A stretch of DNA of 64,000 bases. It comes from Candidatus Poriferihabitaceae bacterium. GTDB taxonomy: Bacteria; Pseudomonadota; Gammaproteobacteria; Arenicellales; Poriferihabitantaceae. Shown here piece by piece: positions 24,666 through 53,094 of this stretch. Each line of letters opens with the position of its first letter. Positions within the stretch are counted from its first letter, which is position 1. The notes under the pieces are model-generated. The model ran no database searches and was not told the origin of the DNA. It was given only the letters and a program-made list of their open reading frames with translations. The position numbers were made by a program, and so were the translations under genes. The stretch covers positions 2,502,174 through 2,566,173 of the forward strand of contig OZ241878.1 of the NCBI GenBank assembly GCA_965203365.1, in the 5' to 3' direction.

Positions 24666-24800
24666 CGTTCAGTTCATGTTAGCAGATTGATAATATTCAA
24701 GCGAAACAATTCAATGCGGATTCTAAACAGTGAGGAAACTCTGGCCAAGGGACACATCTACCGACCAGAATCGAACCTAAATCAGCAAATAAGAATCGAC

Positions 24801-24830
24801 ATTATACATCGTTAAATCCCACCACTTCAA
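24801..24830 (-). promoter_or_regulatory. Putative alpha1 promoter
   Basis: On the minus strand: TTGAAG (24825-24830), an 18-nt spacer, then TATAAT (24801-24806). Lies in the 294-bp AT-rich module 24666-24959. Confidence 0.5.
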
Positions 24831-24959
24831 TTCGATACTCGGGTCAAGGCGAAGTTGATGCGTGATTATCTATCGGAATCGCCTCGGATGCAAGCCATAA
24901 CTGGTTTTCCGAATTCAAGGCGGATATGTCTAATAAGTGATTGACTTTAATAATTATTA

Positions 24960-25111
24960 CACTCAGAAGCGCCCCGCTCGGTGCGCTGCCCGAATAAAGG
25001 GAGCGCGGCGGCGACCGGACAATTCGGCCCCCAAGAGGCTGATTCGGTCATCAATTTCACGACACCAAGGCCCGCTCGGGCCGTGTCAGATGGGTTTTGA
25101 CCGAGCGGGAC
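24960..25111 (-). mobile_element. IS30-family 3'-end remnant
   Basis: Homologous to the sequence downstream of the IS30 transposase stops at 42553-42770 and 44059-44300. Carries an internal ~50-bp deletion relative to 36971-37172. Confidence 0.6.
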
Positions 25112-25212
25112 TCAGATTAGGTGGCCTGGGCAGACCCGACTGACCAGTGCCACTCTGGGGCATGAGATCGGCTAGGGCAAGGGCTATGCCAAGGGATTCG
25201 AAGCCGGTCAAC
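25112..25212 (+). repeat. 101-bp end of an unclassified IS-like element (copy a)
   Basis: Near-identical to 59913-60013. Its end interrupts the alpha2 signal-peptide coding region just before LALAGC. Confidence 0.7.
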
Positions 25213-26857
25213 TGGTCTGGCCCTGGCGGGCTGCGGTGGGGGCAGTTCGAATGATCCTCCCCCGCCGGCTCCGGGGCAGACGCTGGAGGCCGCGGCGGCG
25301 GAGGCCCTTGATGCGGCGAAGAAGGCTGTCGACCTGGTGACGGACGACTCCGAAAACACCATGGACGCCGACGCGAAGGTGGCGGCCGCCAAGGCGGCCG
25401 TCGACAAGGTGCCTGCCGCGCAGCGGGCCGCCCTCAGCCAGCGGCTCGGGAACCTCGAGGGCACGCTTGAGGGAAAGACGGCGTCCCGCACGGCCGCCAT
25501 GCAGAGGAAGGCGGCCGCCGAGAAGAAGGCCATGGCCGCCACGGGCAAGGCGCTGTTTGCGGCGCTGGACGGGCCGCTTGTACCTGGCACCACCACCGCC
25601 GCAGCCGTCAAGAACGCGCTGGACAACCTGGCGGCTGCGGCCGAGGTGCAGACGGGCCTGTCGAATTCCGGAGACCCGACCGGCATCAAGCTCGATCCTA
25701 CGGACGGCGGCGGGGACTTGCCGATCAGCACCGAGGTCAACGATGTCTACGTCCCCAACGAGTCCCCGGTGGTCTTCACGACCGTCAAACCCGTCAAGAA
25801 GGTAGGCGACTGGATGGTCTCGGACCAGACCGACGGTATCCGGACCGAGGGCCAGTTGGTGCCCGAGTTCACCGACCGGGCCCGGGTGTACAACGATCGG
25901 GGGGAGAATACGAAGAAGGATGCCGCGGCACACTTCGGCTCCGATGACAAGCCGGCTACTACAGGGACCTACACCGCGAAGAATCGCTCGCTGTCCCTGA
26001 ACTTCGCTGTCGATCCGCTCATTGCGTCCCCCGAGTTCCCGGCAGCCGGAACCAAGCTCTTCGCTCCGAAAAACGGAGCCTCGGAGGTCAAGGTGCGGGG
26101 CACCTACCAGGGGGCGCCCGGCTACTATTACTGCAAGACCGACTGCCAAGTCCGGGTGAATAGAGGCGGCCTCTCCATGGGTAACAGTAATGGCGACTGG
26201 AGGTTCGTCCACGACCCGGGCGCCCAGGTGTCCCTCACCGATAGTAGCTACCTGTACTTCGGCTGGTGGGTGAGATCGAACAGCAGCGACGACGTGCCCA
26301 GACTGGCCACCGCCTTTTTCGGCTACGAGGGCTTGATTGATGACAACACCTCGTCCGCCAGAAATTACAACGGCTCGGCGACCTTCGAGGGCCCCGCGGT
26401 CGGCCAGTACGCCATCCACGACCCGCGCAACGGCGAGGGCGAGGGCGGCGCATTCGAGGCGAAGGCCACGCTGAAGGCCCGGTTCGGGGACCCCAACAAT
26501 GTGCGCGATGCGGGCCTGTCCGGCACGATCGACGAGTTTCGGCTGAACGGCGGGTCCGAGGATCCGGGCTGGAGCGTGCAGTTGGTGAAAAGCCGCTTTG
26601 AGAGTGCCGGAAAAAAGGTCACCAGAAGAGGCACCAAGACGGTCATGTCGATCGGCGACGTCAAGGGGCCGGAGGTTCTCAACAGCTGGGAAGCCCGGTT
26701 GTTTGACACCACGCCCGGAACCGTTGCGGATGGCGGCGACGGCCGCGACGAGGCGGACAAGGTCCTCGGAACCTTCTACTCCGAATACAGCACCACCCAT
26801 CGGCTGGTCGGCGCGTTCGGCGCGAGCAACATCACGAAACAGAACGTCAACGACTAG
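25208..26857 (+). pseudogene. SLP alpha2 (promoterless, signal peptide truncated)
   Basis: The body is ~99% identical to alpha1 from codon 62 onward. Only ...STGLALAGCGGGSS remains of the signal peptide. An in-frame stop at 25163 leaves no start codon upstream. Confidence 0.8.
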
Positions 26858-28359
26858 CCATCGACTTGACCCCTGATCGGGCGCCCGGCCGGTGGGCTTC
26901 TCCTTTCCAGGCCGGGCGTCCCCCCCTTTTCTCGTACAGCCTCGCCGATGCGACCCTCGGCGAGGCTGTATGAGGTGGTGCTGGCTGTCGAGCGGAAGCT
27001 CCGGGGTTGTTGACTTTCCTGTCCTTTGCGGCTACACGCGGTTTCCCGGCTTGGAGCCTGCGCCGGGGAACAGCGCAACAAGGTTGTGTCAAGGTTTTTG
27101 ACACCCTTGAGCGAACAAGTTAGGCTGCGGTCGAATCCTTCACAGGGCCTCTTCACCCTGGACCGGCCTCGGGGAGACTTCCGGATTGATCCCGCGGCGG
27201 GTGGTGGGGTCGCGAGCGACATCGGACAAGCATGGTGCGGTGAGCTTCCGGCACGGCACGGAGGAGGCCAGAGACGCCGAGGAGAAGGTGGGCGGCGTGT
27301 GGACGGTCACGGACTACGAGAGGACCCAGGGCTCCGGCGAAGGGAAGTTCACCGACAAGGTCAAGGTGTACAGCAACCGGACAGGGCCGAACTCCATTCC
27401 GGTCGCGAAATGGTTCCCTGATCAGGGTGCCAAGGACAGCTTCACGGCCAACGCGGGGGACTACACCGCGGCGGAGCGCAGGATATCCCTGGGCACCGGG
27501 ATCGACCACAGCATCGACTCCCCCGAGTTCCCGGAGTCGGGCACCCTGAACTTCCCGGCGAAAGACGGAGCCGAGGAGATCCAGGTCCGGGGCTCCTACC
27601 GGGGCGCACCCGGCTACTACTACTGCACTCCCGGCACCGGCACCTGCGATGTCGGGGTTGGGACCGGCGGCTACTTCCTGCAAACCCCCAGCAACGCCGA
27701 CTGGATGTTCGTTCACGATGAGGGGGCCAGGGTGATCCATCCCGATTATCACTTTGCGTACTTCGGCTGGTGGTTGAGAGAGGACGACGACGCCCTGCTC
27801 GGCGGCGGGGCGACCTTCGAGGGACCCGTGGTCGGCCAGTATGCCATCCACGACCCGCTCGACGGCAAGGGCGAGGGCGGCGCGTTCACGGCGACGGCCC
27901 TGCTGAAGGCCAAGTTCGGAACCACCACCACTGTGCCCGACACGGGCATGACCGGCACGGTCGACAAGTTCCTCGCCCGCGAGCAGCCTGACGGGCCGGC
28001 GACGGTGGTCTTTGACCTGGAGGAGATCGACGGGCTGCATCCCGGGCTGCGGGCACCCGGCCACCAGCCCGTCCCGACGCCATCCGGTCCGGTCTCGCCG
28101 AGTCCTCCCCCGACCGACGAGTCCGCGCCCTCGGTCCGGGATTCCCCGACCCCGACGAATCGGACCGGGCCCCACATCCGCCCCGGGGTGACCGATCTCG
28201 ACCGACTGGGGGCAGTCATCCGTCGAAGAGCCCGCCGCTGCCGGGGGCGAAGCAGGTCTGGCAGGGGCTTGAACGACTGAACTGGGCGGTCTTGGGACGG
28301 GATGCCCTAGGTGAGAGAAAGCGAGAATGAGGTTGGATACAAGTTTAATATGTTGAAAG
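25325..28359. repeat. IR1 right arm
   Basis: See 21445-24482. Confidence 0.9.
27154..28280 (+). pseudogene. SLP fragment beta4b (mirror of beta4a)
   Basis: The 364-aa ORF translation is identical to 21524-22618. Confidence 0.8.
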
Positions 28360-28536: not shown

Positions 28537-29874
28537 TCAGAGTGGTCGGACGAAGCTGAGTTCGGCGCGGTTGCGTTCGAAGTCGAGGGCCTGGGCGTTG
28601 GTGTGGCGTTCCTCGCGGATGAGCGACAGGCGCGGGCTGAAGCCGCGCAGGGTCAGGGCGCGATTGTGGACCGAGAAGGTGAAGGTCCGCGTCTCGTCCC
28701 GGCGGGACTTTCGGTCGATGGTGTGATGGGCGGCGCCGCTTCCCTGATAGTCGGTACGCTCCAAGGCGGTGCGCAGGCCCAGCGTGAAGCCCTTCGGCAA
28801 CGCCAGCGTGGCGCCAAGGCTCACCTGCGGACCCCGGCTACGCCAGTGTTCCACCTTTGCCCGACTCCAGTTCCACCCCACATTCCCGCCCAGGCGCAGC
28901 GTGGGCCGCGCGATCCAACTGGCCCCGAGCGAGATCTCCCCCTCTGGACCATCCAGATGGCCGCAGCCGCGGCAGTTGCGCCGGGCAGCGCTGGTTTGGG
29001 CGGATATCGACAGCCTTGGCGTCAGGCGACGATCCGCCTCCAGCCGCAGGCCGAAGCGATCGGTTTCGGGCCGCCCGGCGGTCCATTGCCGGTCCACGGT
29101 CGCCAGCAGGCTGGCTTCGGAGCGGGCATCGATCAGCCAGCGTGGGCCCAGGTGCAGGGCCAAGGATTGCCGGTCGAACTCCCGACCCCGGTATTCCCGG
29201 AGGCTGGCATTCGCGCCGATGCGCAGCCGCCGGTGGTCCGTCAGTGGGTGCTGGTATTCGCCCCCGCCCCAGAGGGACAGGCCGAGGCCGGATTCAGGCT
29301 TCGCCGGATCGTCCAGGGTGAAGGGCAGCCGCCCGAAGTCCGTGTCAAGGAAGATCGTGCGCTCTCCCGAGGCCGCATTGAGGTTGCTGTCCGGGGCGAT
29401 GGCCGCGCCGAACCAGGCCTCCCACCGCCGCCGCTGCCGCATGACCTGGAGAAAGCGTCGTAAATTGGCCACCACCGCCGGCGGCAGGTCTCCGGCCAGC
29501 ACTTGCTCGAAATGCCGTTTCGCCCGCCTGTCCTCCTCCTTCAGGAAGAAGGCGTACGCCAGTTCGAGGCGCACCCGCACCAGTTCCGGCTGATTCACCA
29601 GGATGGCCCGGAAGGCCGCGATGGCCTCGTCGAGTTTCCCGTCCCGGGTTGCCCGATCCGATGCGGCCCGGGCGGCCTGGAGTGCCGCCATCCCGGCCTC
29701 GAAACGCTGGCCAGTCAGGGCCTCGTCCGAGAGGGCCGTTGCTTCCGTCTTTCCCGTCGGGGTAGCGGGGTCGGCACCGAAGGCGGACGAGGGAGTCCCG
29801 CCGACGGTCACCAGCAGTCCGGCCAGCGGGATCAGCAGGGCCCGGAAAGCGGGGCCGACAGGAAATCGCATCAT
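28537..29874 (-). CDS. Slam (surface lipoprotein assembly modulator, DUF560) outer-membrane protein
   Basis: Signal peptide, then a TPR-like region, then the hallmark LPPAVVANLRRFLQVMRQRRRWEAWFGAAIAPDSNLNAAS, then an alternating beta-strand C-terminal domain ending FERNRAELSFVRPL. ATG chosen at 29872-29874; the ORF track begins at a TTG. Confidence 0.8.
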   Translation of the reverse strand: MMRFPVGPAFRALLIPLAGLLVTVGGTPSSAFGADPATPTGKTEATALSDEALTGQRFEAGMAALQAARAASDRATRDGKLDEAIAAFRAILVNQPELVRVRLELAYAFFLKEEDRRAKRHFEQVLAGDLPPAVVANLRRFLQVMRQRRRWEAWFGAAIAPDSNLNAASGERTIFLDTDFGRLPFTLDDPAKPESGLGLSLWGGGEYQHPLTDHRRLRIGANASLREYRGREFDRQSLALHLGPRWLIDARSEASLLATVDRQWTAGRPETDRFGLRLEADRRLTPRLSISAQTSAARRNCRGCGHLDGPEGEISLGASWIARPTLRLGGNVGWNWSRAKVEHWRSRGPQVSLGATLALPKGFTLGLRTALERTDYQGSGAAHHTIDRKSRRDETRTFTFSVHNRALTLRGFSPRLSLIREERHTNAQALDFERNRAELSFVRPL

Positions 29875-30001
29875 GGCGTCAGGGGGCAATCGGAAAAAAA
29901 GGGGGGAACCGGGAGAAGATCCAGAATCGGGAAGGGGGGTGCCGGAAGTGCTCCCAGGGTCAGGCCGGGAACCGGGGCGGATTCCCGCCTGAACGGGTCG
30001 G

Positions 30002-31582
30002 CTACTCGTTGGTGTCCTTCACGCCGAAGGCACCGACCAGCCGGTGGGGGCTGCCGTACTCGGAGTAGACACTGGCGAGGATCAGGTCCGGCACAGTGTT
30101 GTTGGCTTTTTTCCGGGTATCGAAATACGTGGCGCCTTTCCACTAGCCGGACTCCTTCGCCGGGTTGCCGTTGATCGACCAGACGGTCCTGGCCGACGCA
30201 AGACTGTTACTGGTCGTGCCCGAGCCATATGCCGCTCTTTTCAACTCCACGCTCCAGCCCGAATCCGTGGATCCACCCTTCAGGCGGAACCCGTTGATCG
30301 TGCCGGTCACGCCCGCGTTCTCGACGACGGGGCTTCCGACGGTGTTCCCGAAAATAGCGTTCAGCGTGACGTCTGCCGTGAAGGCGCCGCCGTCGCTGTC
30401 CTCTCTCACCCAGCAGCCGAAGTAGTAGAAGGTCTTATCGGTCACGGTCACTTGGGCACCCTCGTCGTACTGGAAGATCCATTTCTCCAACAGGGGATAG
30501 GCATCGTCCTTGGTATTTTCAACAATTCCGACCTTCAATTCAACCGTGCAGTCGCCAGCGGTGGCGGATGTGCAGCGATAGTTGCCTGGGGCACCCTGAT
30601 AGGTGCCCTGGATGCTGACGACGTTGGTTTCCGTATCCTTCGGCGAATCGAAGTCCGTCTTCCCCGCTGTCGGGAACCCGTCGGACTGGATGTGGATATC
30701 TTCTTTGGTGGCCATATCCCCGTCATGCTTCAGAGGCAGCGTCATCGCAGCCGCATCATGGTTTCCCGCGTTGGGCGGTCGGTCTGTACCCGCGAAGTGT
30801 TTCGCCGCATCCACCTCCATATTCTTCCAGTTGGAGTAGATCCTGGCCCAGTCGGTGACAGTGGAGTAGGTGGAGGGGGCTTCGTTGCCGGTTGGGGTGT
30901 TGGTGAGCCCAGTGCGCCGGTAGTCCGTGACCATCCAGGGAGACCCCTTTCCCACCGACCGGGGTGCCCCGACCGGATCAAGGGCCTTCGTCTTGTGGGT
31001 GCCGAGTGCTTTATCCTTGTCGTCGAGCGGCATCGACCCCGCGCCGTCCACGGGATTGACCTCCAGCTGAGGGAGGCCGACCTCAAGGACCTTGCTCCCG
31101 TCAGTGCCCGTGGCCTTGAGGCGAAAGTCTTGCTCAATGTTGTTCAGCGCGGTCAGGTTGGTCTGGGCACTGCCGTCCGAGTCCTTGGGCCCGGCCAGCG
31201 CCGCAAACATCGCCTTGCTGGTGGCGACGTTCTTGGCCTTCATGGCGGTCGTGCGCGACTCCTTCGCTTCGTTAAGCATGCCCACGAGGTTCCCGAGCTG
31301 CTGGCTGAGGGCGGCCCGCTGCGCAACTGGCACCTTGTTGACGGCCGTCCGGGCCGCCGCCAGCTTCGTATCGGCGTCGGTGACCTTGGCGTCATCGGCA
31401 GTGTCCGTCACCGCCTCGACGGCGGTCTTCGCCGCCGCGGCCCGTTGCGCCGGGGTTTGGGTCATGGTGCCATCGCCATCATTGTTCGTATTCGGGATGG
31501 TACTGTTGTTGCCGCCGCCGCAGCCAGCCAAAGTCAGCAAGGCGGCCAGCAGGACAGTCATCAAGAGATTGGGAGTGTTCAT
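30002..31582 (-). pseudogene. SLP gamma (TbpB-like) with a single in-frame TAG
   Basis: MNTPNLLMTVLLAALLTLAG|C lipobox. TAG at 30143-30145 sits where paralogs have Ser/Asn (GSW/NSW/GNW). The same frame continues for 46 codons, WKGATYFDT...VYSEYGSPHRLVGAFGVKDTNE, to a TAG at 30002-30004. Confidence 0.8.
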
Positions 31583-31746
31583 CGTTCGGTTCACGTTGAT
31601 GTTGGCAGAATGAGTGGTTGGATGCCCGGGGGGTTGGATGCGGGGGCACTGCGGCCAGCGAGCGGACCCGCTGGCCGAAGCCCAACGCTCAACACCAATC
31701 TGCCTAGCATCGTGAAGGCCGTCGCCGGGGGGCGACGGACGCAGGG

Positions 31747-31775
31747 ACTATAAAACGAGGGGGGGGGTGGGTCAA
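31747..31775 (-). promoter_or_regulatory. Putative gamma promoter with a C9 tract in the spacer
   Basis: On the minus strand: TTGACC (31770-31775), a 17-nt spacer (ca, C9, tcgttt), then TATAGT (31747-31752). Confidence 0.5.
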
Positions 31776-31877: not shown

Positions 31878-32075
31878 TGTCTGGCAGAAAACGCCTCTTT
31901 TTCGGGCGACCCGGCTCGGTCCGTCGCCAGTTCCCCAAGCAAAACAATAGGCAATATCTATAAAATAAGAGAATCTGATCGAATTTCCCGATGACCGGCC
32001 GAGACCATCCCACTTGGGGTCCTTGCTGACTCGATTTTGTCAAAATGCGCCCACAGGTCTCCCCACCCTGACCCA
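31878..32075 (-). repeat. 198-bp IS-end-like repeat R2 (copy a)
   Basis: Inverted copy of 52075-52272. Ends in ...TTTTCTGCCAGACA. Lies directly after a transposase C-terminal remnant. Confidence 0.7.
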
Positions 32076-32118
32076 TCGGTCAGGGGAGGTTGATACCGGA
32101 AAGGGGAGTCAACGACCG

Positions 32119-32700: not shown

Positions 32701-32849
32701 GAAAAAATGCCAATGTGGAATTGTCAGCGGACGATGAACCGGAAGAACCTCCCCTGACCGACAGATCGGCGCATGATGGACAAGCTGAAAACCCTTCAGC
32801 CGAGGGAATGTGTCCGATGGAGAGGCTGAAAAAGGAATCGTGATCTGAG

Positions 32850-33038
32850 ATGGTGGCGTCGATCAGAGCGCTGGCCTCATCCTCGCAAGGGATTTCGTAC
32901 TACGAGCGGGACGGGTACTACGCCAGGGACGATCCGGAACACAAGGCCGCCAGCACCTGGGTGGGCAAGGGCGCGGCGGACCTCGGCCTGCAGGCCCGGT
33001 GGATTCCGGCGTGTTCCAGTCGGTTTCGGCAGCGCCTT
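32850..33038 (+). pseudogene. MOBF (TrwC/TraI-like) relaxase N-terminal fragment
   Basis: MVASIRALASSSQGISYYERDGYYARDDPEHKAASTWVGKGAADLGLQ matches the relaxase N-terminal pattern S..A..YY....DYY........W.GKGA..LGL. A frameshift occurs at ~32995 and the fragment is truncated at ~33038. Confidence 0.5.
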
Positions 33039-33180
33039 CGAGGCTGTCGGCACACACCACCAGCCTTGCGCGTGGCGCCAGTCGGTGCGCTCGCACAACC
33101 CCCGCGCCAGGGCATGACGAGTCAGCTCGCACGGGCGCAAGGCCTGGGTCAGCCACGTCAGCGTGGCGGTATCGAAATGG
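33039..33180 (-). mobile_element. Tn5-like IS4 transposase fragment (first catalytic Asp region)
   Basis: FDTATLTWLTQALRPCELTRHALARGL...AQGWWCVP compares with Tn5 IEDTTSLSYRHQVAEELGKLG...RGWWVHS. Confidence 0.4.
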
Positions 33181-33254
33181 CGTCATCCGATCTGCCTGCC
33201 CGAAGCAGACAGGAACGAAAATCAAAATACAATTCTAAGATCCTGAAAGGTGCG

Positions 33255-33440
33255 GCCGCCCGGCAGCAGCATCCGGCGGTGGAATCCGCGATCAACCATC
33301 GGGAGCACCGGGGATTGGATCGGGTCAGGACGCCTGGTGCTGAGGGCTTTGCCCGCACCGGGGCCGGGTCGATGCGGGCGTTCAATCTCCATCGATTGGG
33401 GGGGTTGCTGCGTCGCCGGATGCGGGAGGCCGAGCGCTGA
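33255..33440 (+). mobile_element. Transposase C-terminal remnant
   Basis: HPAVESAINHREHRGLDRVRTPGAEGFARTGAGSMRAFNLHRLGGLLRRRMREAER*. TGA at 33438-33440. Confidence 0.45.
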
Positions 33441-33444
33441 CGAA

Positions 33445-35094
33445 GGCGAGATGACCCCGCCGCCTCCGGGGCTGACGCTGGAGGCCGCGGCGAAGACGGC
33501 TGTCGGCATGGTGACGGACGACTCTGACGCCGCGGCGGTCACCGACGCCGAGAAGAAGGTGGCGGCCGCCAAGGCGGCCGTCGACAAGGTGCCTGCCGCG
33601 CAGCGGAACGCCCTCATCCGGCGGCTCGGGAACCTCGAGGGCAAGCTTGGGGGAAAGACGGCGTCCCGCACGGCCGCCATGGCGATGAAGGCGAAGGCCA
33701 TGGTTGCCCGCGGCAAGGCGCTGCTCGGGGCGATGACGAAGCCCGATGGTGACGACAAGACGGTGCTGGACAATCTCGAGAGCGATCCTGTCTACAACGA
33801 CCTCCTCGTCGATGATGCGACGTACGATGACGGTGCCCGCAAGGCCGTCCGGGCGAAAAACTACCTGGACCGGCCTCGGGGAGACTTCCGGATTGATCCT
33901 GCGGCGGGTGCGGGGTCGCGAGCGACGTCGGATCTGCATGGTGCGGTGAGCTTCCGGCACGGCACGGAGGAGGCCAGGGACGCCGAGGAGAAGGTGGACG
34001 GCGTGTGGACGGTCACGGACTACGTGAGGACCCAGGGCTCTGGCGAAGGGAAGTTCACCGACAAGGTCAAGGTGTACAGCGACCGGACGGGGCCGAACTC
34101 CATTCCGGCCGCGAAATGGTTCTCTGATTCGGGTGCCAAGGCCTCCTACACGGCCAACGCGGGGACCTACACCCCGGCGGAACGCAGGATATCCCTGAAC
34201 ACCGGGACCGACCACAGCATCGACTCCCCCGATTTCCCGGAGACGGGCACCAAGCCCTTCGCTCCGACAGACGGAGCCGATGAGGTCCAGGTCCGGGGCT
34301 CCTACCGGGGGGCGCCCGGCTACTACTACTGCACCCCCGGCACCAGTGAATCCTGCACGGTCGGGGTCGGGCAAATCGGCTACTTCCTGAGCGCCGGCTG
34401 GACGTTCGTCCATGACGAGGGGGCCATGGTGATCCACCCCGATACTGACTTTGCGTACTTCGGCTGGTGGTTGAGAGAGGACGACGACGGCCTGCCCGCG
34501 GCGGTCGCCCCCTTCTACGCCACCAGAGGCGGCGGCGTCGGGATCACCTCGGACGGCAACAGCCTGATCGGCGGCGAGGCGACCTTCGAGGGTCCCGCAG
34601 TCGGCCAGTATGCCATCCACGACCCGCTCGACGGCAAGGGCGAGGGCGGCGCGTTCACGGCGACGGCCCTGCTGAAGGCCAAGTTCGGAGCCAGCAACTT
34701 GGTGCCCGACACGGGCATGACCGGCACGGTCGACAAGTTCCGCCTGGAAAACGGGTCCGAGCCGAACTGGAGCGTGACGCTGAACAGGGGTGGCCCTGGC
34801 AGCACCCCTGCTTCGGATAATCGAGGCGGATGGAGGGCTGGCGCCAAGACGGACCCCGCCGCCAAGACGGTCTGGTCGATCGATGGCAACAAGGCGCTGG
34901 CGGCCGGCAGCTGGGTTGCCACGATGTATGATGAAACGCCCGATTTGCCCACGGTTGCCAGTGGCGGTATCACCAAACCGGTCGGCGACGGCAACAACAA
35001 TCCGACCCTGGTGCTCGGAAAGTTCCATGCCGAATACGGCGGCACCCACCGACTGGTCGGCGCCTTCGGCGCGAAGAGGGTTGTTGAAGAGTAG
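33445..35094 (+). pseudogene. SLP beta2 (promoterless, no signal peptide)
   Basis: Nearly identical to beta1 at a 4130-bp offset (33620-35111). The N-terminus is replaced by an IS remnant and there is no lipobox. Confidence 0.8.
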
Positions 35095-35104
35095 GAGCAG
35101 CCAT

Positions 35105-35458
35105 CGAACGGACCGGGGTGTGAAGCTCGAACTACGGGCCGGTTTCGTCGGTCTCGTCCCGCCCGCCGACCGGCCGACGGACACGCCACCCCTGCGGCTG
35201 CTTGCCGTGCGGGTGCGGGAACCCGAGCCGCCGGCCGGGAAGGAATCGCTCGACTGGCTGCTGCTGACGACCGAGGGTGAACCCCCCGCCGGGAACGCAC
35301 TGCGCGTCGCCGGGTGGTACGAGAAGCGGTGGCTGATCGAGGAATGGTTCCGCGCCCTGAAGACCGGCACGCGGATCAAGGACCGTCGGCTCAATGCCGC
35401 CGACAGCCTGTGCTGCTGCCTCGCCTTCGACGCGATCACGGCCTGCACCGTGATGTCG
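35105..35458 (+). mobile_element. Tn5-like IS4 transposase fragment (C-terminal catalytic region)
   Basis: LDWLLLTTEGEPPAGNALRVAGWYEKRWLIEEWFRALKTGTRIKDRRL compares with Tn5 LKWLLLTSEPVESLAQALRVIDIYTHRWRIEEFHKAWKTGAGAERQRM. Confidence 0.7.
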
Positions 35459-35510
35459 AAGGACAGGAAAGTCAACAACCCCGGAGCTTCCGCTCGACAG
35501 CCAGCACCAC

Positions 35511-35554
35511 CTCGTACAGCCTCGCCGAGGGTCGCATCGGCGAGGCTGTACGAG
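35511..35554. other. 18-bp perfect-stem hairpin in the alpha 3' flank
   Basis: ctcgtacagcctcgccga-gggtcgca-tcggcgaggctgtacgag. Confidence 0.6.
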
Positions 35555-35653
35555 AAAAGGGGGAACGCCCGGCCTGGAAAGGAGAAGCCAACCGGCCCGG
35601 GCGCCCGATCAGGGGTCAGGGAACGGCACCACCTGCCCCCCTCCGTTTGATGG

Positions 35654-36917
35654 CTATTCGTTGACGTTCTGTTTCGTGATGTTGCTCGCGCCGAACGCGC
35701 CGACCAGCCGATGGGTGGTGCTGTATTCGGAGTAGAAGGTTCCGAGGATCTTGTCCGCCTCGTTGGAGCCGTCGCCGCCGTCCGCAACGGTTCCGGGCGT
35801 GGTGTCAAACAACCGGGCGTCCCAGCTGTTGAGAACCTCCGGCCCCTTGAAGTCGCCGATCGACATGACCGTCTTGGTGCCTCTTCTGGTGACCTTTTTT
35901 CCGGCACTCTCAAAGCGGCTTTTCACCAACTGCACGCTCCAGCCCGGATCCTCGGACCCGCCGTTCAGCCGAAACTCGTCGATCGTGCCGGACAGGCCCG
36001 CATCGCGCACATTGTTGGGGTCCCCGAACCGGGCCTTCAGCGTGGCCTTCGCCTCGAATGCGCCGCCCTCGCCCTCGCCGTTGCGCGGGTCGTGGATGGC
36101 GTACTGGCCGACCGCGGGGCCCTCGAAGGTCGCGGAGCCGTCGTAATCGCGGGCGCTCGTAGTTTTGCCTTCCTCCAGAGTGACGCCCTCGAAGCCGAAA
36201 AAGGCGGTGGCCAGTCTGGGCACGTCGTCGCTGCTGTTCGATCTCACCCACCAGCCGAAATACAGGTAGTCGGAATCAGGGAGGGACACCTGGGCGTCCG
36301 GGTCGTGGACGAACCTCCAGCCGGCATACAGGCTGATGCCGCCTCTTCTCACCTGGACTTGGCAGTCGGTCTTGCAGTAATAGTAGCCGGGCGCCCCCTG
36401 GTAGGTGCCCCGCACCTTGACCTCCGAGGCTCCGTCTGTCGGCTCGAAGGTATGGCTTCCGGCTCCCTGCACCGGGAACTCGGGGGACGCAATGCGCGGA
36501 TCGACAGCGAAGTTCAGGGACAGCGAGCGATTCTTCGCGGTGTAGGTCCCTGTAGTAGCCGGCTTGTCATCGGAGCCGAAGTGTGCCGCGGCATCCTTCT
36601 TCGTATTCTCCCCCCGATCGTTGTACACCCGGGCCCGGTCGGTGAACTCGGGCACCAACTGGCCCTCGGTCCGGATACCGTCGGTCTGGTCCGAGACCAT
36701 CCAGTCGCCTACCTTCTTGACGGGTTTGACGGTCGTGAAGACCACCGGGGACTCGTTGGGGACGTCGACATCGTTGACTTTGGTGCTGATCGGCAAGTCC
36801 CCGCCGCCGTCCGTAGGATCGAGCTTGATGCCGGTCGGGTCTCCGGAATTCGACAGGCCCGTCTGAACGTCGGCCGCGTCTGCCAGGTTGTCCAGCGCGT
36901 TCTTGACGGCTGCGGCG
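35654..36917 (-). pseudogene. SLP alpha3 (5'-truncated cassette with variant central block)
   Basis: Homology to alpha1 begins at ...NALDNLADAADVQTG (breakpoint ~36917). No signal peptide or promoter. The central block differs (VQGAGSHTFEPTDG...GVTLEEGKTTSARDYDGS). Confidence 0.8.
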
Positions 36918-36970
36918 CTGTCAGAGGCGGGCGCCGGCCCGCCCAGCGCCGCTGGTCGGTGTGTGTAAAT

Positions 36971-37172
36971 GACGGGCCGGGTCCCGCTCGGTCAAAACCC
37001 GTCTGACACGGCCCGAGCGGGCTCTGGCGTCGTGAAATCGCCTCGGTCAGACTTCCTGGCGCCGAGCGGGATGCCATTGATGACCGACATCCGCCCCTTG
37101 GGGGCCGAATTTTCCGGTCGCCGCCGCGCTCCCTTTATTCGGGCAGCGCACCGAGCGGGGCGCTTCTGAGTG
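36971..37172 (+). mobile_element. IS30-family 3'-end remnant abutting the beta1 promoter module
   Basis: Homologous to 44090-44300 and 42553-42770. Ends ...GAGCGGGGCGCTTCTGAGTG. Confidence 0.6.
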
Positions 37173-37301
37173 TAATAATTATTAAAGTCAATCACTTATT
37201 AGACATATCCGCCTTGAATTCGGAAAACCAGTTATGGCTTGCATCCGAGGCGATTCCGATAGATAATCACGCATCAACTTCGCCTTGACCCGAGTATCGA
37301 A

Positions 37302-37331
37302 TTGAAGTGGTGGGATTTAACGATGTATAAT
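37302..37331 (+). promoter_or_regulatory. Putative beta1 promoter
   Basis: TTGAAG (37302-37307), an 18-nt spacer, then TATAAT (37326-37331). Lies in the AT-rich module 37173-37466, an exact mirror of 24666-24959. Confidence 0.5.
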
Positions 37332-37466
37332 GTCGATTCTTATTTGCTGATTTAGGTTCGATTCTGGTCGGTAGATGTGTCCCTTGGCCAGAGTTTCCTC
37401 ACTGTTTAGAATCCGCATTGAATTGTTTCGCTTGAATATTATCAATCTGCTAACATGAACTGAACG

Positions 37467-39224
37467 ATGAACAAACACAATGTCTTAATGGCGGTCTTGC
37501 TGGCCGCTGGGTTGGCCTTGGCGGGCTGCGGGGGCGGCAGCAGCGATCCGGTGACGCCCCCGGATAACGAGATGACCCCGAAGGAGCTTGCTGACGCGGC
37601 GACCACGGCCCTCAATGAGGCGGAGACGGCTGTCGGCATGGTGACGGACACGGCCGATGACGCCAAGGTCACCGCCGCCGACGCGAAGGTGGCGGCCGCC
37701 AAGGCGGCCGTCGACAAGGTGCCTGCCGCGCAGCGGGCCGCCCTCAGCCAGCGGCTCGGGAACCTCGAGGGCAAGCTTGGGGGAAAGACGGCGTCCCGCA
37801 CGGCCGCCATGGCGATGAAGGCGAAGGCCATGGTTGCCCGCGGCAAGGCGCTGCTCGGGGCGATGACGAAGCCCGATGGTGACGACAAGACGGTGCTGGA
37901 CAATCTCGAGAGCGATCCTGTCTACAACGACCTCCTCGTCGATGATGCGACGTACGATGACGGTGCCCGCAAGGCCGTCCGGGCGAAAAACTACCTGGAC
38001 CGGCCTCGGGGAGACTTCCGGATTGATCCTGCGGCGGGTGCGGGGTCGCGAGCGACGTCGGATCTGCATGGTGCGGTGAGCTTCCGGCACGGCACGGAGG
38101 AGGCCAGGGACGCCGAGGAGAAGGTGGACGGCGTGTGGACGGTCACGGACTACGTGAGGACCCAGGGCTCTGGCGAAGGGAAGTTCACCGACAAGGTCAA
38201 GGTGTACAGCGACCGGACGGGGCCGAACTCCATTCCGGCCGCGAAATGGTTCTCTGATTCGGGTGCCAAGGCCTCCTACACGGCCAACGCGGGGACCTAC
38301 ACCCCGGCGGAACGCAGGATATCCCTGAACACCGGGACCGACCACAGCATCGACTCCCCCGATTTCCCGGAGACGGGCACCAAGCCCTTCGCTCCGACAG
38401 ACGGAGCCGATGAGGTCCAGGTCCGGGGCTCCTACCGGGGGGCGCCCGGCTACTACTACTGCACCCCCGGCACCAGTGAATCCTGCACGGTCGGGGTCAG
38501 GCAAATCGGCTACTTCCTGAGCGCCGGCTGGACGTTCGTCCATGACGAGGGGGCCATGGTGATCCACCCCGATACTGACTTTGCGTACTTCGGCTGGTGG
38601 TTGAGAGAGGACGACGACGGCCTGCCCGCGGCGGTCGCCCCCTTCTACGCCACCAGAGGCGGCGGCGTCGGGATCACCTCGGACGGCAACAGCCTGATCG
38701 GCGGCGAGGCGACCTTCGAGGGTCCCGCAGTCGGCCAGTATGCCATCCACGACCCGCTCGACGGCAAGGGCGAGGGCGGCGCGTTCACGGCGACGGCCCT
38801 GCTGAAGGCCAAGTTCGGAGCCAGCAACTTGGTGCCCGACACGGGCATGACCGGCACGGTCGACAAGTTCCGCCTGGAAAACGGGTCCGAGCCGAACTGG
38901 AGCGTGACGCTGAACAGGGGTGGCCCTGGCAGCACCCCTGCTTCGGATAATCGAGGCGGATGGAGGGCTGGCGCCAAGACGGACCCCGCCGCCAAGACGG
39001 TCTGGTCGATCGATGGCAACAAGGCGCTGGCGGCCGGCAGCTGGGTTGCCACGATGTATGATGAAACGCCCGGTTTGCCCACGGTTGCCAGTGGCGGTAT
39101 CACCAAACCGGTCGGCGACGGCAACAACAATCCGACCCTGGTGCTCGGAAAGTTCCATGCCGAATACGGCGGCACCCACCGACTGGTCGGCGCCTTCGGC
39201 GCGAAGAGGGTTGTTGAAGAGTAG
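37467..39224 (+). CDS. Surface lipoprotein beta1 (TbpB/fHbp-like, intact)
   Basis: 585 aa with the same signal and lipobox as alpha1. YFGWWLRED motif and barrel signature GEATFEGPAVGQYA...GAFTATALLKAKFG...GTVDKF...WSV...GKFH...LVGAFGA. Confidence 0.85.
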   Translation: MNKHNVLMAVLLAAGLALAGCGGGSSDPVTPPDNEMTPKELADAATTALNEAETAVGMVTDTADDAKVTAADAKVAAAKAAVDKVPAAQRAALSQRLGNLEGKLGGKTASRTAAMAMKAKAMVARGKALLGAMTKPDGDDKTVLDNLESDPVYNDLLVDDATYDDGARKAVRAKNYLDRPRGDFRIDPAAGAGSRATSDLHGAVSFRHGTEEARDAEEKVDGVWTVTDYVRTQGSGEGKFTDKVKVYSDRTGPNSIPAAKWFSDSGAKASYTANAGTYTPAERRISLNTGTDHSIDSPDFPETGTKPFAPTDGADEVQVRGSYRGAPGYYYCTPGTSESCTVGVRQIGYFLSAGWTFVHDEGAMVIHPDTDFAYFGWWLREDDDGLPAAVAPFYATRGGGVGITSDGNSLIGGEATFEGPAVGQYAIHDPLDGKGEGGAFTATALLKAKFGASNLVPDTGMTGTVDKFRLENGSEPNWSVTLNRGGPGSTPASDNRGGWRAGAKTDPAAKTVWSIDGNKALAAGSWVATMYDETPGLPTVASGGITKPVGDGNNNPTLVLGKFHAEYGGTHRLVGAFGAKRVVEE

Positions 39225-39519
39225 GAGCAGCCATCGAACGGGGGCGTGCATGCGTCTCCGCAGCGGCGCCGTCTCGCCCGCCAACGTCAGTCCGACCTCC
39301 GATGGCGACATGGCGGGCGAGTTCGGCGTCGCGAGGGGTGCAGGTGGTGTCGTTCCCTGACCCCTGATCGGGCGCCTGGCTTGGTATTGCCTTCTCCTTT
39401 CCAGGCCGGATGTCCTCCCTTTCTCACACCGCATTCGGATGCTGCGCGGGCGGGTTTGGTGTGTCATGTTGTGAAAAAAACCGCTGGACACTCGTTTTTT
39501 TGTGGCCCAGTCCGGGGCA

Positions 39520-39810
39520 TGGACCAGCTCCACATGCTGCGCGATGAGGCAGCGACGGCTCGCTTCGTCACCCTCCTGTCCGAGGAACCGTTCGACAGTC
39601 GGACGGCCTTGAGTCCGCCGCGTCTGCGAGGTGTTCTCGCTGTTCGACGCGCGGGGCCGCCCCCGGCTCGCTGGTTGCAAGAAGGCCCTGGCGACGCTGG
39701 CCGAGCGGGTGCCACAGATCGTGCTGCCACCGCCGCAGGGGCTGGCGGTGGACCGTCGACCGCGTCTCCTCGTGGGCGGCGTGCCCGTCCCCGAGCAGGA
39801 TCGGCAGCGC
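39520..39810 (+). pseudogene. IS4-like (DUF4338-type) N-terminal fragment, frameshifted
   Basis: MDQLHMLRDEAATARFVTLLSEEPFDSRTALS, then after a frameshift RRVCEVFSLFDARGRPRLAGCKKALATLAERVPQIVLPPPQ. Confidence 0.35.
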
Positions 39811-39881
39811 CTTCGACGCCGCCGGCACACCCCATCGGCCGAGCGCGTGGCGCCAGTCGGTGCGCTCGCACAAACAAACAA

Positions 39882-40665
39882 AGACGGAGCCTCGGAGGTC
39901 AAGGTGCGGGGCACCTACCAGGGGGCGCCCGGCTACTATTACTGCAAGACCGACTGCCAAGTCCAGGTGAGAAGAGGCGGCATCAGCCTGTATGCCGGCT
40001 GGAGGTTCGTCCACGACCCGGACGCCCAGGTGTCCCTCCCTGATTCCGACTACCTGTATTTCGGCTGGTGGGTGAGATCGAACAGCAGCGACGACGTGCC
40101 CAGACTGGCCACCGCCTTTTTCGGCTTCGAGGGCGTCACTCTGGAGGAAGGCAAAACTACGAGCGCCCGCGATTACGACGGCTCCGCGACCTTCGAGGGC
40201 CCCGCGGTCGGCCAGTACGCCATCCACGACCCGCGCAACGGCGAGGGCGAGGGCGGCGCATTCGAGGCGAAGGCCACGCTGAAGGCCCGGTTCGGGGACC
40301 CCAACAATGTGCGCGATGCGGGCCTGTCCGGCACGATCGACGAGTTTCGGCTGAACGGCGGGTCCGAGGATCCGGGCTGGAGCGTGCAGTTGGTGAAAAG
40401 CCGCTTTGAGAGTGCCGGAAAAAAGGTCACCAGAAGAGGCACCAAGACGGTCATGTCGATCGGCGACTTCAAGGGGCCGGAGGTTCTCAACAGCTGGGAC
40501 GCCCGGTTGTTTGACACCACGCCCGGAACCGTTGCGGACGGCGGCGACGGCTCCAACGAGGCGGACAAGATCCTCGGAACCTTCTACTCCGAATACAGCA
40601 CCACCCATCGGCTGGTCGGCGCGTTCGGCGCGAGCAACATCACGAAACAGAACGTCAACGAATAG
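39882..40665 (+). pseudogene. SLP alpha4 (3' cassette fragment, mirror of the alpha3 C-terminal 260 aa)
   Basis: Starts at ...DGASEVKVRGTYQGAPGYYYCKTDC, fused to IS-derived sequence. Confidence 0.8.
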
Positions 40666-40860
40666 CCATCAAACGGAGGGGGGCAGGTGGTGCCGTTCCC
40701 TGACCCCTGATCGGGCGCCCGGGCCGGTTGGCTTCTCCTTTCCAGGCCGGGCGTTCCCCCTTTTCTCGTACAGCCTCGCCGATGCGACCCTCGGCGAGGC
40801 TGTACGAGGTGGTGCTGGCTGTCGAGCGGAAGCTCCGGGGTTGTTGACTTTCCTGTCCTT

Positions 40861-41214
40861 CGACATCACGGTGCAGGCCGTGATCGCGTCGAAGGCGAGG
40901 CAGCAGCACAGGCTGTCGGCGGCATTGAGCCGACGGTCCTTGATCCGCGTGCCGGTCTTCAGGGCGCGGAACCATTCCTCGATCAGCCACCGCTTCTCGT
41001 ACCACCCGGCGACGCGCAGTGCGTTCCCGGCGGGGGGTTCACCCTCGGTCGTCAGCAGCAGCCAGTCGAGCGATTCCTTCCCGGCCGGCGGCTCGGGTTC
41101 CCGCACCCGCACGGCAAGCAGCCGCAGGGGTGGCGTGTCCGTCGGCCGGTCGGCGGGCGGGACGAGACCGACGAAACCGGCCCGTAGTTCGAGCTTCACA
41201 CCCCGGTCCGTTCG
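40861..41214 (-). mobile_element. Tn5-like IS4 transposase fragment (mirror copy)
   Basis: Translation identical to 35105-35458. Confidence 0.7.
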
Positions 41215-41224
41215 ATGGCTGCTC

Positions 41225-42552
41225 CTACTCTTCAACAACCCTCTTCGCGCCGAAGGCGCCGACCAGTCGGTGGGTGCCGCCGTATTCGGCATGGAACTTT
41301 CCGAGCACCAGGGTCGGATTGTTGTTGCCGTCGCCGACCGGTTTGGTGATACCGCCACTGGCAACCGTGGGCAAATCGGGCGTTTCATCATACATCGTGG
41401 CAACCCAGCTGCCGGCCGCCAGCGCCTTGTTGCCATCGATCGACCAGACCGTCTTGGCGGCGGGGTCCGTCTTGGCGCCAGCCCTCCATCCGCCTCGATT
41501 ATCCGAAGCAGGGGTGCTGCCAGGGCCACCCCTGTTCAGCGTCACGCTCCAGTTCGGCTCGGACCCGTTTTCCAGGCGGAACTTGTCGACCGTGCCGGTC
41601 ATGCCCGTGTCGGGCACCAAGTTGCTGGCTCCGAACTTGGCCTTCAGCAGGGCCGTCGCCGTGAACGCGCCGCCCTCGCCCTTGCCGTCGAGCGGGTCGT
41701 GGATGGCATACTGGCCGACTGCGGGACCCTCGAAGGTCGCCTCGCCGCCGATCAGGCTGTTGCCGTCCGAGGTGATCCCGACGCCGCCGCCTCTGGTGGC
41801 GTAGAAGGGGGCGACCGCCGCGGGCAGGCCGTCGTCGTCCTCTCTCAACCACCAGCCGAAGTACGCAAAGTCAGTATCGGGGTGGATCACCATGGCCCCC
41901 TCGTCATGGACGAACGTCCAGCCGGCGCTCAGGAAGTAGCCGATTTGCCCGACCCCGACCGTGCAGGATTCACTGGTGCCGGGGGTGCAGTAGTAGTAGC
42001 CGGGCGCCCCCCGGTAGGAGCCCCGGACCTGGACCTCATCGGCTCCGTCTGTCGGAGCGAAGGGCTTGGTGCCCGTCTCCGGGAAATCGGGGGAGTCGAT
42101 GCTGTGGTCGGTCCCGGTGTTCAGGGATATCCTGCGTTCCGCCGGGGTGTAGGTCCCCGCGTTGGCCGTGTAGGAGGCCTTGGCACCCGAATCAGAGAAC
42201 CATTTCGCGGCCGGAATGGAGTTCGGCCCCGTCCGGTCGCTGTACACCTTGACCTTGTCGGTGAACTTCCCTTCGCCAGAGCCCTGGGTCCTCACGTAGT
42301 CCGTGACCGTCCACACGCCGTCCACCTTCTCCTCGGCGTCCCTGGCCTCCTCCGTGCCGTGCCGGAAGCTCACCGCACCATGCAGATCCGACGTCGCTCG
42401 CGACCCCGCACCCGCCGCAGGATCAATCCGGAAGTCTCCCCGAGGCCGGTCCAGGTAGTTTTTCGCCCGGACGGCCTTGCGGGCACCGTCATCGTACGTC
42501 GCATCATCGACGAGGAGGTCGTTGTAGACAGGATCGCTCTCGAGATTGTCCA
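41225..42552 (-). pseudogene. SLP beta3 (5'-truncated cassette)
   Basis: Identical to beta2 from DNLESDPVYNDLL to the stop. The 5' end is cut by an IS30-like end at 42552/42553. Confidence 0.8.
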
Positions 42553-42935
42553 CAGAAGCGCCACGCTCGCCGCGCTCCCCGAATAAAGGAAGCGCGGCGG
42601 CGACCGGAAAATTCGGCCCTAAAGGGGCTAGTGTCGGTCATCAATGGTATCCTTCTCGACGCTAGGGCCCGCTCGGGCCGTGTCAAACGGGTTTTGGCCG
42701 AGCAGGACCCGGCCCGTCGAACACGGGCTGGCGGAAGGGGGAAGATGGGGGAGGAATGACCGCCTTCAGGGCGGGACGGCAGCGGTGAAGACCTCTTCCG
42801 GGGTCCGATACCCCAGCACCTTGCGGGACCGGCATCACCTGACGGAATTCCGTTCCCTTCGGGAAGGACTGACGCACCAGACCGTTGGTGTACTCGTTCA
42901 GACCCCGTTCCCAAGAGTGGTCCGGGGTCTATCAA
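42553..42935 (-). mobile_element. IS30-family 3' fragment (transposase C-terminus plus end)
   Basis: TPDHSWERGLNEYTNGLVRQSFPKGTEF...RTPEEVFTAAVPP*, followed by the ~215-bp end sequence. Confidence 0.7.
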
Positions 42936-43005
42936 CTCATCACACTTTGACTAGGGGTACTATCTTCACGGAAATTGTCCTCGTTTTATCAGTCCCCCGT
43001 GCCAC

Positions 43006-44333
43006 TCTGAAGTGCAACGCTTGGCCCCGTCGCCTGATCGCTTGAGTTAAGCGGATTGCAGCGGGCCAGAGGATGGCAGACCATCTCAGTTGACGAACAA
43101 CTGGAGAACTGTCATGCCAACTGGCGACCACCCCCTGACCCACCCGGAAAGATCGCCCATTTTCGCGCTCCAGTCCACTGGTTGATCCCAGCGGCCGATG
43201 GCCGCGCAGCTTGGGCGGGACGTCAGCACGATTTCCCGAGAGCTGTCCCGCCACCGCGGACAGCGGGGGGATCGTCACCAGCCAGCCCAGGGCAAGGCGA
43301 CGAGTCGGCGCCGGGAAGCCTCAGCTGTGCCCTGGAAGATGACCCCGGAGCGCTGGGCGGTGGTCGAGGACCGGCTGCAGGCCGGATGGAGCCCGGAACC
43401 CATCTCGGACCGGTCTCGACAACAAGGGGAGGTGATGGCCGGCCGGGAATGGATCTACCCATAGGTTGAGAGCAGGCCGACAGGCGGGGGGGACCTTTAC
43501 CGGTGCCTGCGCCGCTGGGGGAAGCAGCCCAACTGGCGCGGTGGGCGACCTGCGGGACGCGGTCATATTCCCGATCGGGTAGACATCGCCGAGCGCCCGT
43601 TGATCGGGGACAGGGAGCTCGACCTGATCATTGGGGTGAAGCACCGGGGAGCCTGGATTTCCTGGGTAGATCGGGCCTCGAAGTATCGGGTCCTGATCGG
43701 GGTGGCCGGGAAGACAGCGGCGGCCGTGACCGAGGCCATTGTCCGGCGGATGGCCCCGATTCGGGACCGGGTGCACACGGGCACGGCGGACAACGGCCAG
43801 GAGTTCGCGGGGCACCGGGAGATTGCGGCAGCCCTCGGAGCCGACTTGGACTTTGCCACTCCTGACCATTCCTGGGAACGGGGCCTGAACGAGCACACCC
43901 ACGGCCTAGTACGCCAGGACTTTCCGAAGGGAACGGACTTCCGTCAGGGGACGGCTTCTCAGGTCCAGGCGGTGGCAGAGCGGATCAACCGTCGGCCCCG
44001 GAAAGTCCTGGGGGTTCGAACCCCGGAAGAGGTCTTCACCGTCGTCGCCCCGCCCTGAAGGCGGTCATTCCTCTCCCCTCCCCTACCTTTCCAGAAGCCC
44101 GTATTCGACGGGCCAAGTCCCACTCGGCCAAAACCCGTCTGACACGGCCCGAGCGGGCCCTGGCGTCGTGAAATCGCCTCGGTCAGACTCCGCTGAGTCG
44201 AGATGGCTGCCATCGGTGGCCGACATCAGCCCCTTTCAGCCCCTGGGAGGACTGAATGGTCCGGTCGCCGCCCCGCTCCCTTCATTCGGGGGATGCCCTC
44301 ATGCCGGGAGCGGGGCGAGCGTTGCACTTCAGA
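43006..44333 (+). mobile_element. IS30-family element (decayed)
   Basis: Terminal inverted repeats TCTGAAGTGCAACGCTTGGCCCCG (43006-43029) and CGGGGCGAGCGTTGCACTTCAGA (44311-44333). Confidence 0.7.
43114..44058 (+). pseudogene. IS30 transposase with a frameshift (~43185) and an in-frame TAG (43462-43464)
   Basis: HTH ...LGRDVSTISRELSRHRGQRG. DDE region DLIIG...TADNGQEF...SWERGLNEHTHGLVRQDFPKGTDF. Confidence 0.8.
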
Positions 44334-52272: not shown

Positions 52273-52273
52273 A

Positions 52274-52930: not shown

Positions 52931-53094
52931 GAGGAAATTATAGCCCATCCACTCCGGCCCAACAAGCCTCGGCCAGGTCGGCTCCGAAAGCGTTCCGTCT
53001 GACGGGAAAACTGCGGGCGTCTCCGCTGGAACTCGACCCCGACGCCCGCCCGTTCTCTTCCGCGTCGGACTCGGCTTCCAAGCCGACTTCACCC

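Follow-up and report, generated by a model that had tools for sequence, protein, structure and literature searches.

The DNA analysed here is a 64,000-nt stretch (the window) of contig OZ241878.1 from a Candidatus Poriferihabitaceae bacterium, with a G+C content of 64%; all coordinates below are positions in it. Between 33767 and 42552 it contains a perfect inverted repeat built from pieces of a lipoprotein gene family whose members we call alpha and beta. The two arms, 33767-36437 and 39882-42552, are exact reverse complements over 2,671 nt (0 mismatches), and paired arm coordinates always sum to 76319. Identity ends at both boundaries, with an extension of 0 bases on either side, and a spacer of 3,444 nt (36438-39881) separates the arms. 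A perfect repeat of 2,671 nt cannot have arisen by chance. We conclude that it represents a true inverted segmental duplication. The surrounding cluster, made up of Slam-type surface-lipoprotein (SLP) genes, has been scrambled by insertion sequences (IS).

The left arm carries the 3′ 1.33 kb of beta2, a dead IS4/Tn5-like fragment, the alpha 3′ flank and the 3′ 0.78 kb of alpha3. This is the longer, ‘source-like’ version, from which both beta2 (33487-35094, + strand) and alpha3 (35654-36796, − strand) run past the arm edges. The right arm, its exact reverse complement, is a promoterless block of beta 3′ end, dead IS4 and alpha 3′ end that is truncated at both ends: its alpha4 (39882-40665, +) and beta3 (41225-42552, −) fragments are cut exactly at the arm ends. 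Because the genes pass the left-arm edges but stop at the right-arm edges, the most natural reading is that a portion of the left-arm region was copied to form the right arm. alpha4 is identical to the 3′ part of alpha3 (0.78 kb), and the open reading frame (ORF) start called upstream of it, at 39631, is junk sequence.

Several of the truncated gene ends lie at repeats or IS remnants. At the right-arm breakpoint 42552/42553 the neighbour of beta3 is an IS30 end, whereas at 39881/39882 the neighbour of alpha4 is a short unclassified repeat of 73 nt (39801-39873). alpha3 ends at an IS30-family right-end remnant (36971-37168, +) that abuts its truncated 5′ end, and beta2 ends at an ISNCY fragment that lies, with the N-terminal fragment of an orphan MobF relaxase, just upstream of it (32844-33437). 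The IS30 end in the spacer shares 80% identity with 44107-44290, a stretch that follows shortly downstream of an IS30 transposase gene (NCBIfam IS30, 1e-46). This gene belongs to the IS30-family remnants that follow the right arm (42553-44290), which comprise a 3′ fragment (42553-42950, −) and a frameshifted copy (+) with its transposase at 43186-44055 and its end at 44107-44290. The dead fragment inside the arms is the C-terminal part of an IS4/Tn5-like transposase (35060-35647, +; mirror copy 40672-41259, −) and matches residues 277-362 of the Tn5 transposase (E 3e-10) as well as NCBIfam IS4 (6e-26). The spacer itself holds the 5′ part of alpha3, the IS30 end remnant, an AT-rich promoter module, the intact beta1 gene and a 3′ patchwork of 640 bp (segment ‘X’, 39242-39881), which consists of pieces like the 3′ flanks of family genes (58809-58888 and 35556-35643) plus the 73-nt repeat, which recurs at 33026-33098.

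beta1 (37467-39224, +) is intact and encodes a 585-aa lipoprotein with a signal peptide (MNKHNVLMAVLLAAGLALAGC). beta2 is 5′-truncated, promoterless and without a signal peptide, its family homology starting at about 33487, and beta3 is limited to the 3′ 1.33 kb, cut where the IS30 end begins (42553). beta2 and beta1 form a direct repeat at an offset of 4130 (33489-35111 vs. 37619-39241), with 21 mismatches that are distributed as a mosaic: 19 lie within 33493-33620 and just two in 33621-35111 (1,491 nt). beta1 and beta3 form an inverted repeat (37897-39241 vs. 41208-42552) of 1,345 nt with two mismatches, both nonsynonymous, at codon 345 (AGG in beta1, GGG in beta3; R/G) and codon 536 (GGT/GAT; G/D). 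beta2 equals beta3 at both codons, and both copies are 99.85% identical to beta1. In beta1 the two variant positions are 38499 and 39073, and the stretch matching the 19 clustered mismatches is 37623-37750. Comparison with the protein of a sister genome suggests that R345 is derived in beta1 and D536 in beta2 and beta3, which would be one change per side.

The promoter module upstream of beta1 (37089-37579, 491 nt) recurs in inverted orientation upstream of alpha1, where 24553-25043 matches it at 99% identity. The AT-rich upstream sequence common with alpha1 (37169-37466, +) includes a promoter-like site at 37302-37331, TTGAAG-18-TATAAT, which is the best sigma-70-like site in the 33-43 kb interval. 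Of the copies in that interval, beta1 alone combines a promoter-like site with a lipoprotein signal peptide; beta2, beta3, alpha3 and alpha4 are without both. Across 21-44 kb, alpha1 and beta1 are the only predicted expression sites, and the seven other copies, without module and signal peptide, nonetheless keep open frames of 344-614 codons, as called with guidance from G+C at third codon positions (GC3). No terminator-like sites were found in 33-43 kb. A pilE-like G-quadruplex had its sole match inside the alpha arms (36279, 40017), away from the promoter, and was judged to be a chance occurrence.

Much of this layout had been proposed in a preliminary description made from the letters and their ORFs, and it stands. 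Exact alignment confirms the two identical 2,671-bp arms and the sum of 76319; beta2 and alpha3 do lie on the left and alpha4 and beta3 on the right, with beta1 in the 3,444-bp spacer. The Tn5-like fragment and the IS30-like end are corroborated by the database matches and the 80% identity given above, and the promoter module and beta1 expression site by the 99% module match and the sigma-70-like site. The direct repeat of beta2 and beta1 at an offset of 4130 and the inverted repeat of beta3 and beta1, each two codons apart, were likewise read correctly (two mismatches in 33621-35111; R345G and G536D). Our analysis adds the 640-bp spacer patchwork, the 5′ truncation of beta2 and its patch of 19 single-nucleotide polymorphisms (SNPs).

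By GC3-guided ORF calling, the alpha and beta genes are one paralogous family sharing the lipoprotein signal peptide MNKHNVLMAVLLAAGLALAGC. Read from the sequence, beta1 and alpha1 begin MNKHNVLMAVLLAAGLALAGCGGG, a lipobox whose C21 is nearly invariant in the family alignment. Sequence searches of Pfam, NCBIfam and PDB gave no significant family for these lipoproteins (Pfam TbpB_B_D matched below threshold, in two paralogs only), and fold comparison alone gave matches. The AlphaFold2 model of beta1 (predicted local distance difference test, pLDDT, 78.6; predicted template-modelling score, pTM, 0.75) has a three-helix stalk, a beta-rich handle (184-400) and a C-terminal eight-stranded barrel (413-581). 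Its best Foldseek matches in the PDB were to meningococcal fHbp (probability 0.99-1.0; template-modelling score, TM, 0.37-0.43, target-normalised), and the TbpB C-lobe was matched at a probability of 0.96-0.97. The cluster also contains a gene for an outer-membrane protein of the Slam type (surface lipoprotein assembly modifier; 28537-29889, −; PF04575 SlipAM (DUF560), 1e-20), the presumed exporter of the family, and at three loci from other genomes (L009, L010 and L011) a family gene lies about 160 nt upstream of a Slam homolog (70% identical). A lipobox, a handle with barrel and linkage to Slam define the Slam-dependent surface lipoproteins, whose translocation has been reconstituted in E. 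coli (PMC5449769). By lipobox, predicted fold and Slam linkage, the alpha and beta proteins are putative Slam-type lipoproteins that would be displayed on the surface.

Homologs of the family are few. A protein search returned 46, nearly all in metagenome-assembled genomes of diverse phyla; the closest match in a scan of species-representative genomes, among which that of the window itself was absent, was 74% identical; and a metagenome scan with beta1 found no relative, while one with the family alignment found only relatives at 35-42%. Several of the homolog genome names point to sponge symbionts (Poriferihabitaceae; SB0662, CAR and RHO bins), and from these names the host is probably a sponge symbiont itself. 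For sponge symbionts, we found neither this lipoprotein family nor this architecture described in the literature.

The second predicted expression site lies in another inverted repeat of the cluster, IR1 (21445-28359), whose arms (21445-24516 and 25291-28359) are 99.0% identical and enclose a spacer of 774 bp. This spacer holds the alpha1 promoter and first ~50 codons, between the bodies of alpha1 (22947-24665, −; with promoter module and signal peptide) and of alpha2, which is 5′-truncated and promoterless. Inversion of IR1 would therefore switch which alpha body gets expressed. Differences between the arms are confined to three clusters. The first lies at the inner edge; in the second (24159-24174) alpha1 has the sequence of alpha3, and in the third (23175-23312) alpha2 has that of alpha3 and alpha4. 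Elsewhere the arms are identical over ~3 kb, even where alpha3 differs by 10-25%. Such a pattern is what short-tract gene conversion would be expected to leave on a background that is being homogenised. The conversion-like patches map to regions matching low-confidence segments of the beta1 model. IR1 also contains two beta-like fragments (21524-22618 and 27186-28280), both 5′-truncated and promoterless, whose identity to beta1 is 87%, with no exact match longer than 90 nt; their dN/dS (ratio of nonsynonymous to synonymous substitution rates) values are contaminated by an out-of-frame tail and were left unused.

alpha3, 5′-truncated with 380 codons open, and alpha4 are 91% identical to alpha1, and the longest exact match between alpha3 and alpha1 is 270 nt. 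With beta1, in turn, alpha3 and alpha4 share only ~70% identity and at most 18 nt of exact match. The dN/dS of alpha1 vs. alpha3 is 1.4, a point value without a significance test. In the sister genome (L001/L061), alpha and beta are both intact and form a simple tandem; alpha there is 92.5% identical to alpha3 vs. 85.8% to alpha1. More generally, the silent alpha3 and alpha4 and the IR1 beta fragments are 92-94% identical to the sister genes, the expressed-type copies 84-86%. Since the silent copies are nearer to the sister genes than alpha1 and beta1 are, they archive divergent alleles.

What could recombination do at the 2.7-kb repeat? Its geometry shows that a crossover between the arms flips only the 3.4-kb spacer. 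Since this spacer contains all of beta1 and its promoter and the arms do not differ, the two isomers have identical products, and arm-by-arm inversion changes no protein. Recombination between beta1 and the inverted beta3 can swap the two variant codons (R345G and G536D) and nothing else, and conversion from beta2 could change those two codons and/or import the 19-SNP N-terminal patch. Because beta2 and beta1 are direct repeats, a crossover between them would remove 4,130 bp, and the promoter with it. Thus, the exchange of the expressed beta body envisaged in the preliminary description holds for two codons or the 19-SNP patch, but not for arm inversion. Its further proposal, that an alpha-type 3′ end could be joined to the beta1 site, is poorly supported: with ~70% identity and at most 18 identical nt between alpha3/4 and beta1, we reject such an alpha/beta fusion as unlikely. 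Given exact matches of 270 nt and 90 nt vs. 18 nt, the natural recombination partner of each cassette is the expression site in the other repeat. A site-specific invertase was also considered and rejected, as the arms are kilobase-sized and the cluster is without a recombinase; 21-44 kb contains no recombinase gene, only transposase fragments, and the sole tyrosine recombinase of the window (6081-6998) is that of a conjugative element.

Other family genes in the window have features of their own. The one just upstream of Slam (29890-31594, −) has an in-frame stop after ...NPAKESG, beyond which the frame continues to ...HRLVGAFGVKDTNE; it is also without one barrel segment and is probably a pseudogene, although its position, SLP then Slam, is the conserved one. 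The promoter of this gene (30143-31594, −), TTGACC-17-TATAGT, has a run of nine C (31759-31767) inside its spacer. The upstream regions of two convergent family genes (57027-58781 and 60222-61946) share 97% identity; in them, TTGACA is directly followed by a run of nine G (56958-56966) in one case and of 20 G (62007-62026) in the other. Homopolymer tracts in promoters resemble textbook cases of slipped-strand phase variation. It is IR1 and the homopolymer tracts in the promoters of these other family genes that could change expression in the window.

Our favoured explanation, to which we assign a probability of roughly 0.5, is that the 2.7-kb inverted duplication is real, that general homologous recombination keeps its arms identical and that flipping it is neutral for the phenotype. 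RecA-type gene conversion from arm to arm would keep homogenising the arms, as in large palindromes elsewhere, and the inverted copies would persist because a crossover between them inverts rather than deletes DNA. As the flip codes for the same proteins and few coding outcomes are available, the repeat would be a near-neutral product of a recombination-prone, contingency-type family and not the switch itself. Six other kilobase-scale inverted repeats with family genes, 97-99.98% identical, occur in three genomes (L010/L013, L011/L012, L015 twice, L016/L017 and L018), and those of L015 include mirrored 5′-truncated beta-like cassettes. Taken together, the IR1 patches, the beta2/beta1 mosaic and the repeats in other genomes favour ongoing conversion between arms. 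The preliminary description had read the zero divergence as very recent duplication or homogenisation; this alternative is sound, and the IR1 patches and the similar repeats elsewhere favour its second half.

Several points weigh against this explanation. Ongoing exchange is inferred, not seen. The sharp arm edges, without decaying homology, equally fit a single young duplication. Two beta1-specific differences persist, which means that homogenisation is not uniform across the three beta copies. Finally, the presence of family genes was the reason for selecting the loci in other genomes, and their repeats therefore demonstrate recurrence rather than statistical enrichment.

On one contig of a 5.46-Mb genome (CBDBGH010000003.1), L010/L013 and L011/L012 are two head-to-head inverted duplications of the whole lipoprotein-Slam unit, with arms of at least 4,061 nt (99.98%) and at least 3,341 nt (99.6%), respectively.

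The same facts can be read as a one-off, recent inverted duplication, made by IS activity or replication template switching and left as neutral debris with no continuing exchange or function. Zero mismatches are what a young copy should have, the duplication breaks off sharply next to an IS30 end and a short repeat, the dead IS4 fragment was copied together with the gene pieces, and remnants of IS30, ISNCY, MobF and conjugative elements abound in the region. Under this explanation, however, IR1 and several repeats in other genomes would all need to be young, and the differences between the IR1 arms are conversion patches rather than scattered mutations; we therefore consider it unlikely. Far less probable still is an assembly artefact, in which the assembler duplicated a single-copy segment in inverted orientation or collapsed strain variants. 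Perfect identity is suspicious, and the relatives are all metagenome-assembled genomes, but the structure is more than a simple fold-back, with a unique spacer of 3.4 kb and breakpoints at IS junctions; its neighbour IR1 is 99% identical with structured differences, and repeats of the same kind occur in independent assemblies of other organisms. If the assembly is from long reads, as the contig naming of a related sample suggests, single reads could also span the 8.8-kb structure.

Another explanation is a dedicated cassette system for antigenic or phase variation, in which segments of a silent alpha/beta archive, protected by the palindrome, would be transferred to alpha1 and beta1 by gene conversion and so vary an exposed lipoprotein, for example against recognition by phage or host. 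Such a system would account for alpha1 and beta1 alone having the module and signal peptide while seven silent copies keep long open frames, and for silent copies that are divergent alleles (91% vs. alpha1, 87% vs. beta1) nearer to the genes of the sister genome. Conversion-like patches in regions matching low-confidence segments of the beta1 model, the dN/dS of 1.4 for alpha1 vs. alpha3 (again a point value without a significance test), the homopolymer promoter tracts of other family genes (C9; G9 vs. G20) and the mirrored 5′-truncated beta-like cassettes at L015 in another genome point the same way. The cassettes of the 2.7-kb repeat, however, add almost no diversity, as beta2 equals beta3 at 99.85% identity to beta1 and alpha3 equals alpha4. 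Silent copies that are perfectly identical imply exchange in both directions, whereas conversion in vls-type systems runs one way (PMC11499132); the 5′ truncations coincide with IS remnants and so look accidental; the in-frame stop in the Slam-adjacent family gene (30143-31594) indicates decay; and no variants have been observed. We regard a dedicated system as possible but doubtful, and return to an inverted duplication homogenised by general recombination as the best account of this repeat.

The cluster is bounded on the left by a conjugative-element remnant (1-21 kb) and on the right by purL. Genes of the remnant (1-21359) encode a coupling protein (536-2632), a tyrosine integrase (6081-6998), AcaB (8762-9718), an S24 peptidase (12420-13130), TraG_N (16315-17889) and DUF1525 (20859-21359). 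Parts of the IS4/Tn5-like fragment (35460-35544 and 35117-35458) have ~80% DNA identity to sequence near family genes elsewhere (L005-L014, L018, L019), and in L005-L014 the IS4-like sequence lies ~1.3 kb upstream of the family gene. On sequence grounds, this hints that the lipoprotein genes may travel with IS4/Tn5-like elements. A repeat of ~200 nt, 91-94% identical at 31878-32079, 51857-52272 and 59434-59631, adjoins family genes at two of its three sites and may be a miniature mobile element. Tandem repeats with periods of 21, 33 and 54 nt (51396-53461) lie within coiled-coil (CCDC90-like) ORFs (51396-51794 and 52274-53461) and are related to a sequence at 9010-9153 of the sister locus L061. 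The whole window was also scanned for Rfam families and tRNAs, with no matches.

For annotation, the cluster carries a warning, as most of its ‘genes’ are promoterless fragments, and the 2.7-kb repeat serves mainly as a marker of very active homologous recombination. Tentatively, we suggest that a previously undescribed Slam-type family of alpha/beta lipoproteins, shared horizontally among sponge symbionts of several phyla, might be run as a contingency system, with homopolymer tracts for on/off switching, recombination with the archive for variation and palindromes that preserve the archive. If so, mutualists of an animal that lacks adaptive immunity would have programmed surface variation, with phage or recognition by host phagocytes as the presumed driver. 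Sponge symbionts whose family varies by recombination and slipped-strand switching would be using a surface-variation toolkit known from vertebrate pathogens, and the cluster would be a concrete locus at which to study how symbionts evade recognition by phage or host.

The class of mechanism, a recombination-prone multigene family of surface proteins with truncated paralogs and inverted duplications, is already well known, and the cluster can be set beside known systems. Known Slam-dependent SLPs of Neisseria, Haemophilus, Moraxella and Pasteurella (TbpB, fHbp, HpuA, PmSLP; PMC5449769) have in common with the alpha/beta family the lipobox, the handle with eight-stranded barrel and the linkage to Slam. 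The alpha/beta family differs from them in having no significant Pfam or PDB sequence match and an extra N-terminal three-helix stalk; its hosts appear to be sponge-associated members of several phyla rather than vertebrate pathogens; and it is multicopy, with truncated paralogs. Like Borrelia vls/vmp and Neisseria pilE-pilS, the cluster combines predicted expression sites with promoterless 5′-truncated paralogs, some of them inverted, and its mosaic patches fit segmental conversion. In vls, silent copies ~90% identical to the expressed gene are highly diverse, and conversion is one-directional (PMC11499132). In contrast, the cassettes of the 2.7-kb repeat are near-identical to beta1 and to each other, and diversity is seen only in copies paired with the other site (alpha3/4 vs. 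alpha1, 91%; IR1 beta fragments vs. beta1, 87%). Unlike in vls and pilE-pilS, the truncated ends fall at IS remnants, one-directional conversion is unlikely, and no variation has been observed.

Layouts that rely on inversion offer further parallels. As with invertons and shufflons (Hin/Gin, the R64 shufflon, the invertible promoters of Bacteroides), DNA flanked by inverted repeats lies next to surface-protein genes, but arms of 2.7 kb replace those of tens of bp and 21-44 kb has no recombinase gene. In the sap system of Campylobacter fetus, RecA-dependent inversion acts on a promoter-bearing segment between oppositely oriented sapA homologues. The cluster resembles it in that kilobase-scale homologous inverted genes flank a promoter-bearing segment, whose inversion would proceed by general recombination and not through an invertase, and IR1 fits that layout. 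At the 2.7-kb repeat, however, the entire beta1 gene, and not just a promoter and 5′ end, lies within the flipped segment, so that inversion leaves the expressed gene body the same and moves no promoter to another gene. Gene conversion between the arms of inverted paralogs is familiar from the human Y-chromosome palindromes and from Salmonella tufA/tufB. Unlike those, the arms described here carry gene fragments and a dead IS, so homogenisation would bring no evident selective benefit; like them, they are long inverted arms that remain ~100% identical while their flanks diverge, and their inversion isomers are neutral.

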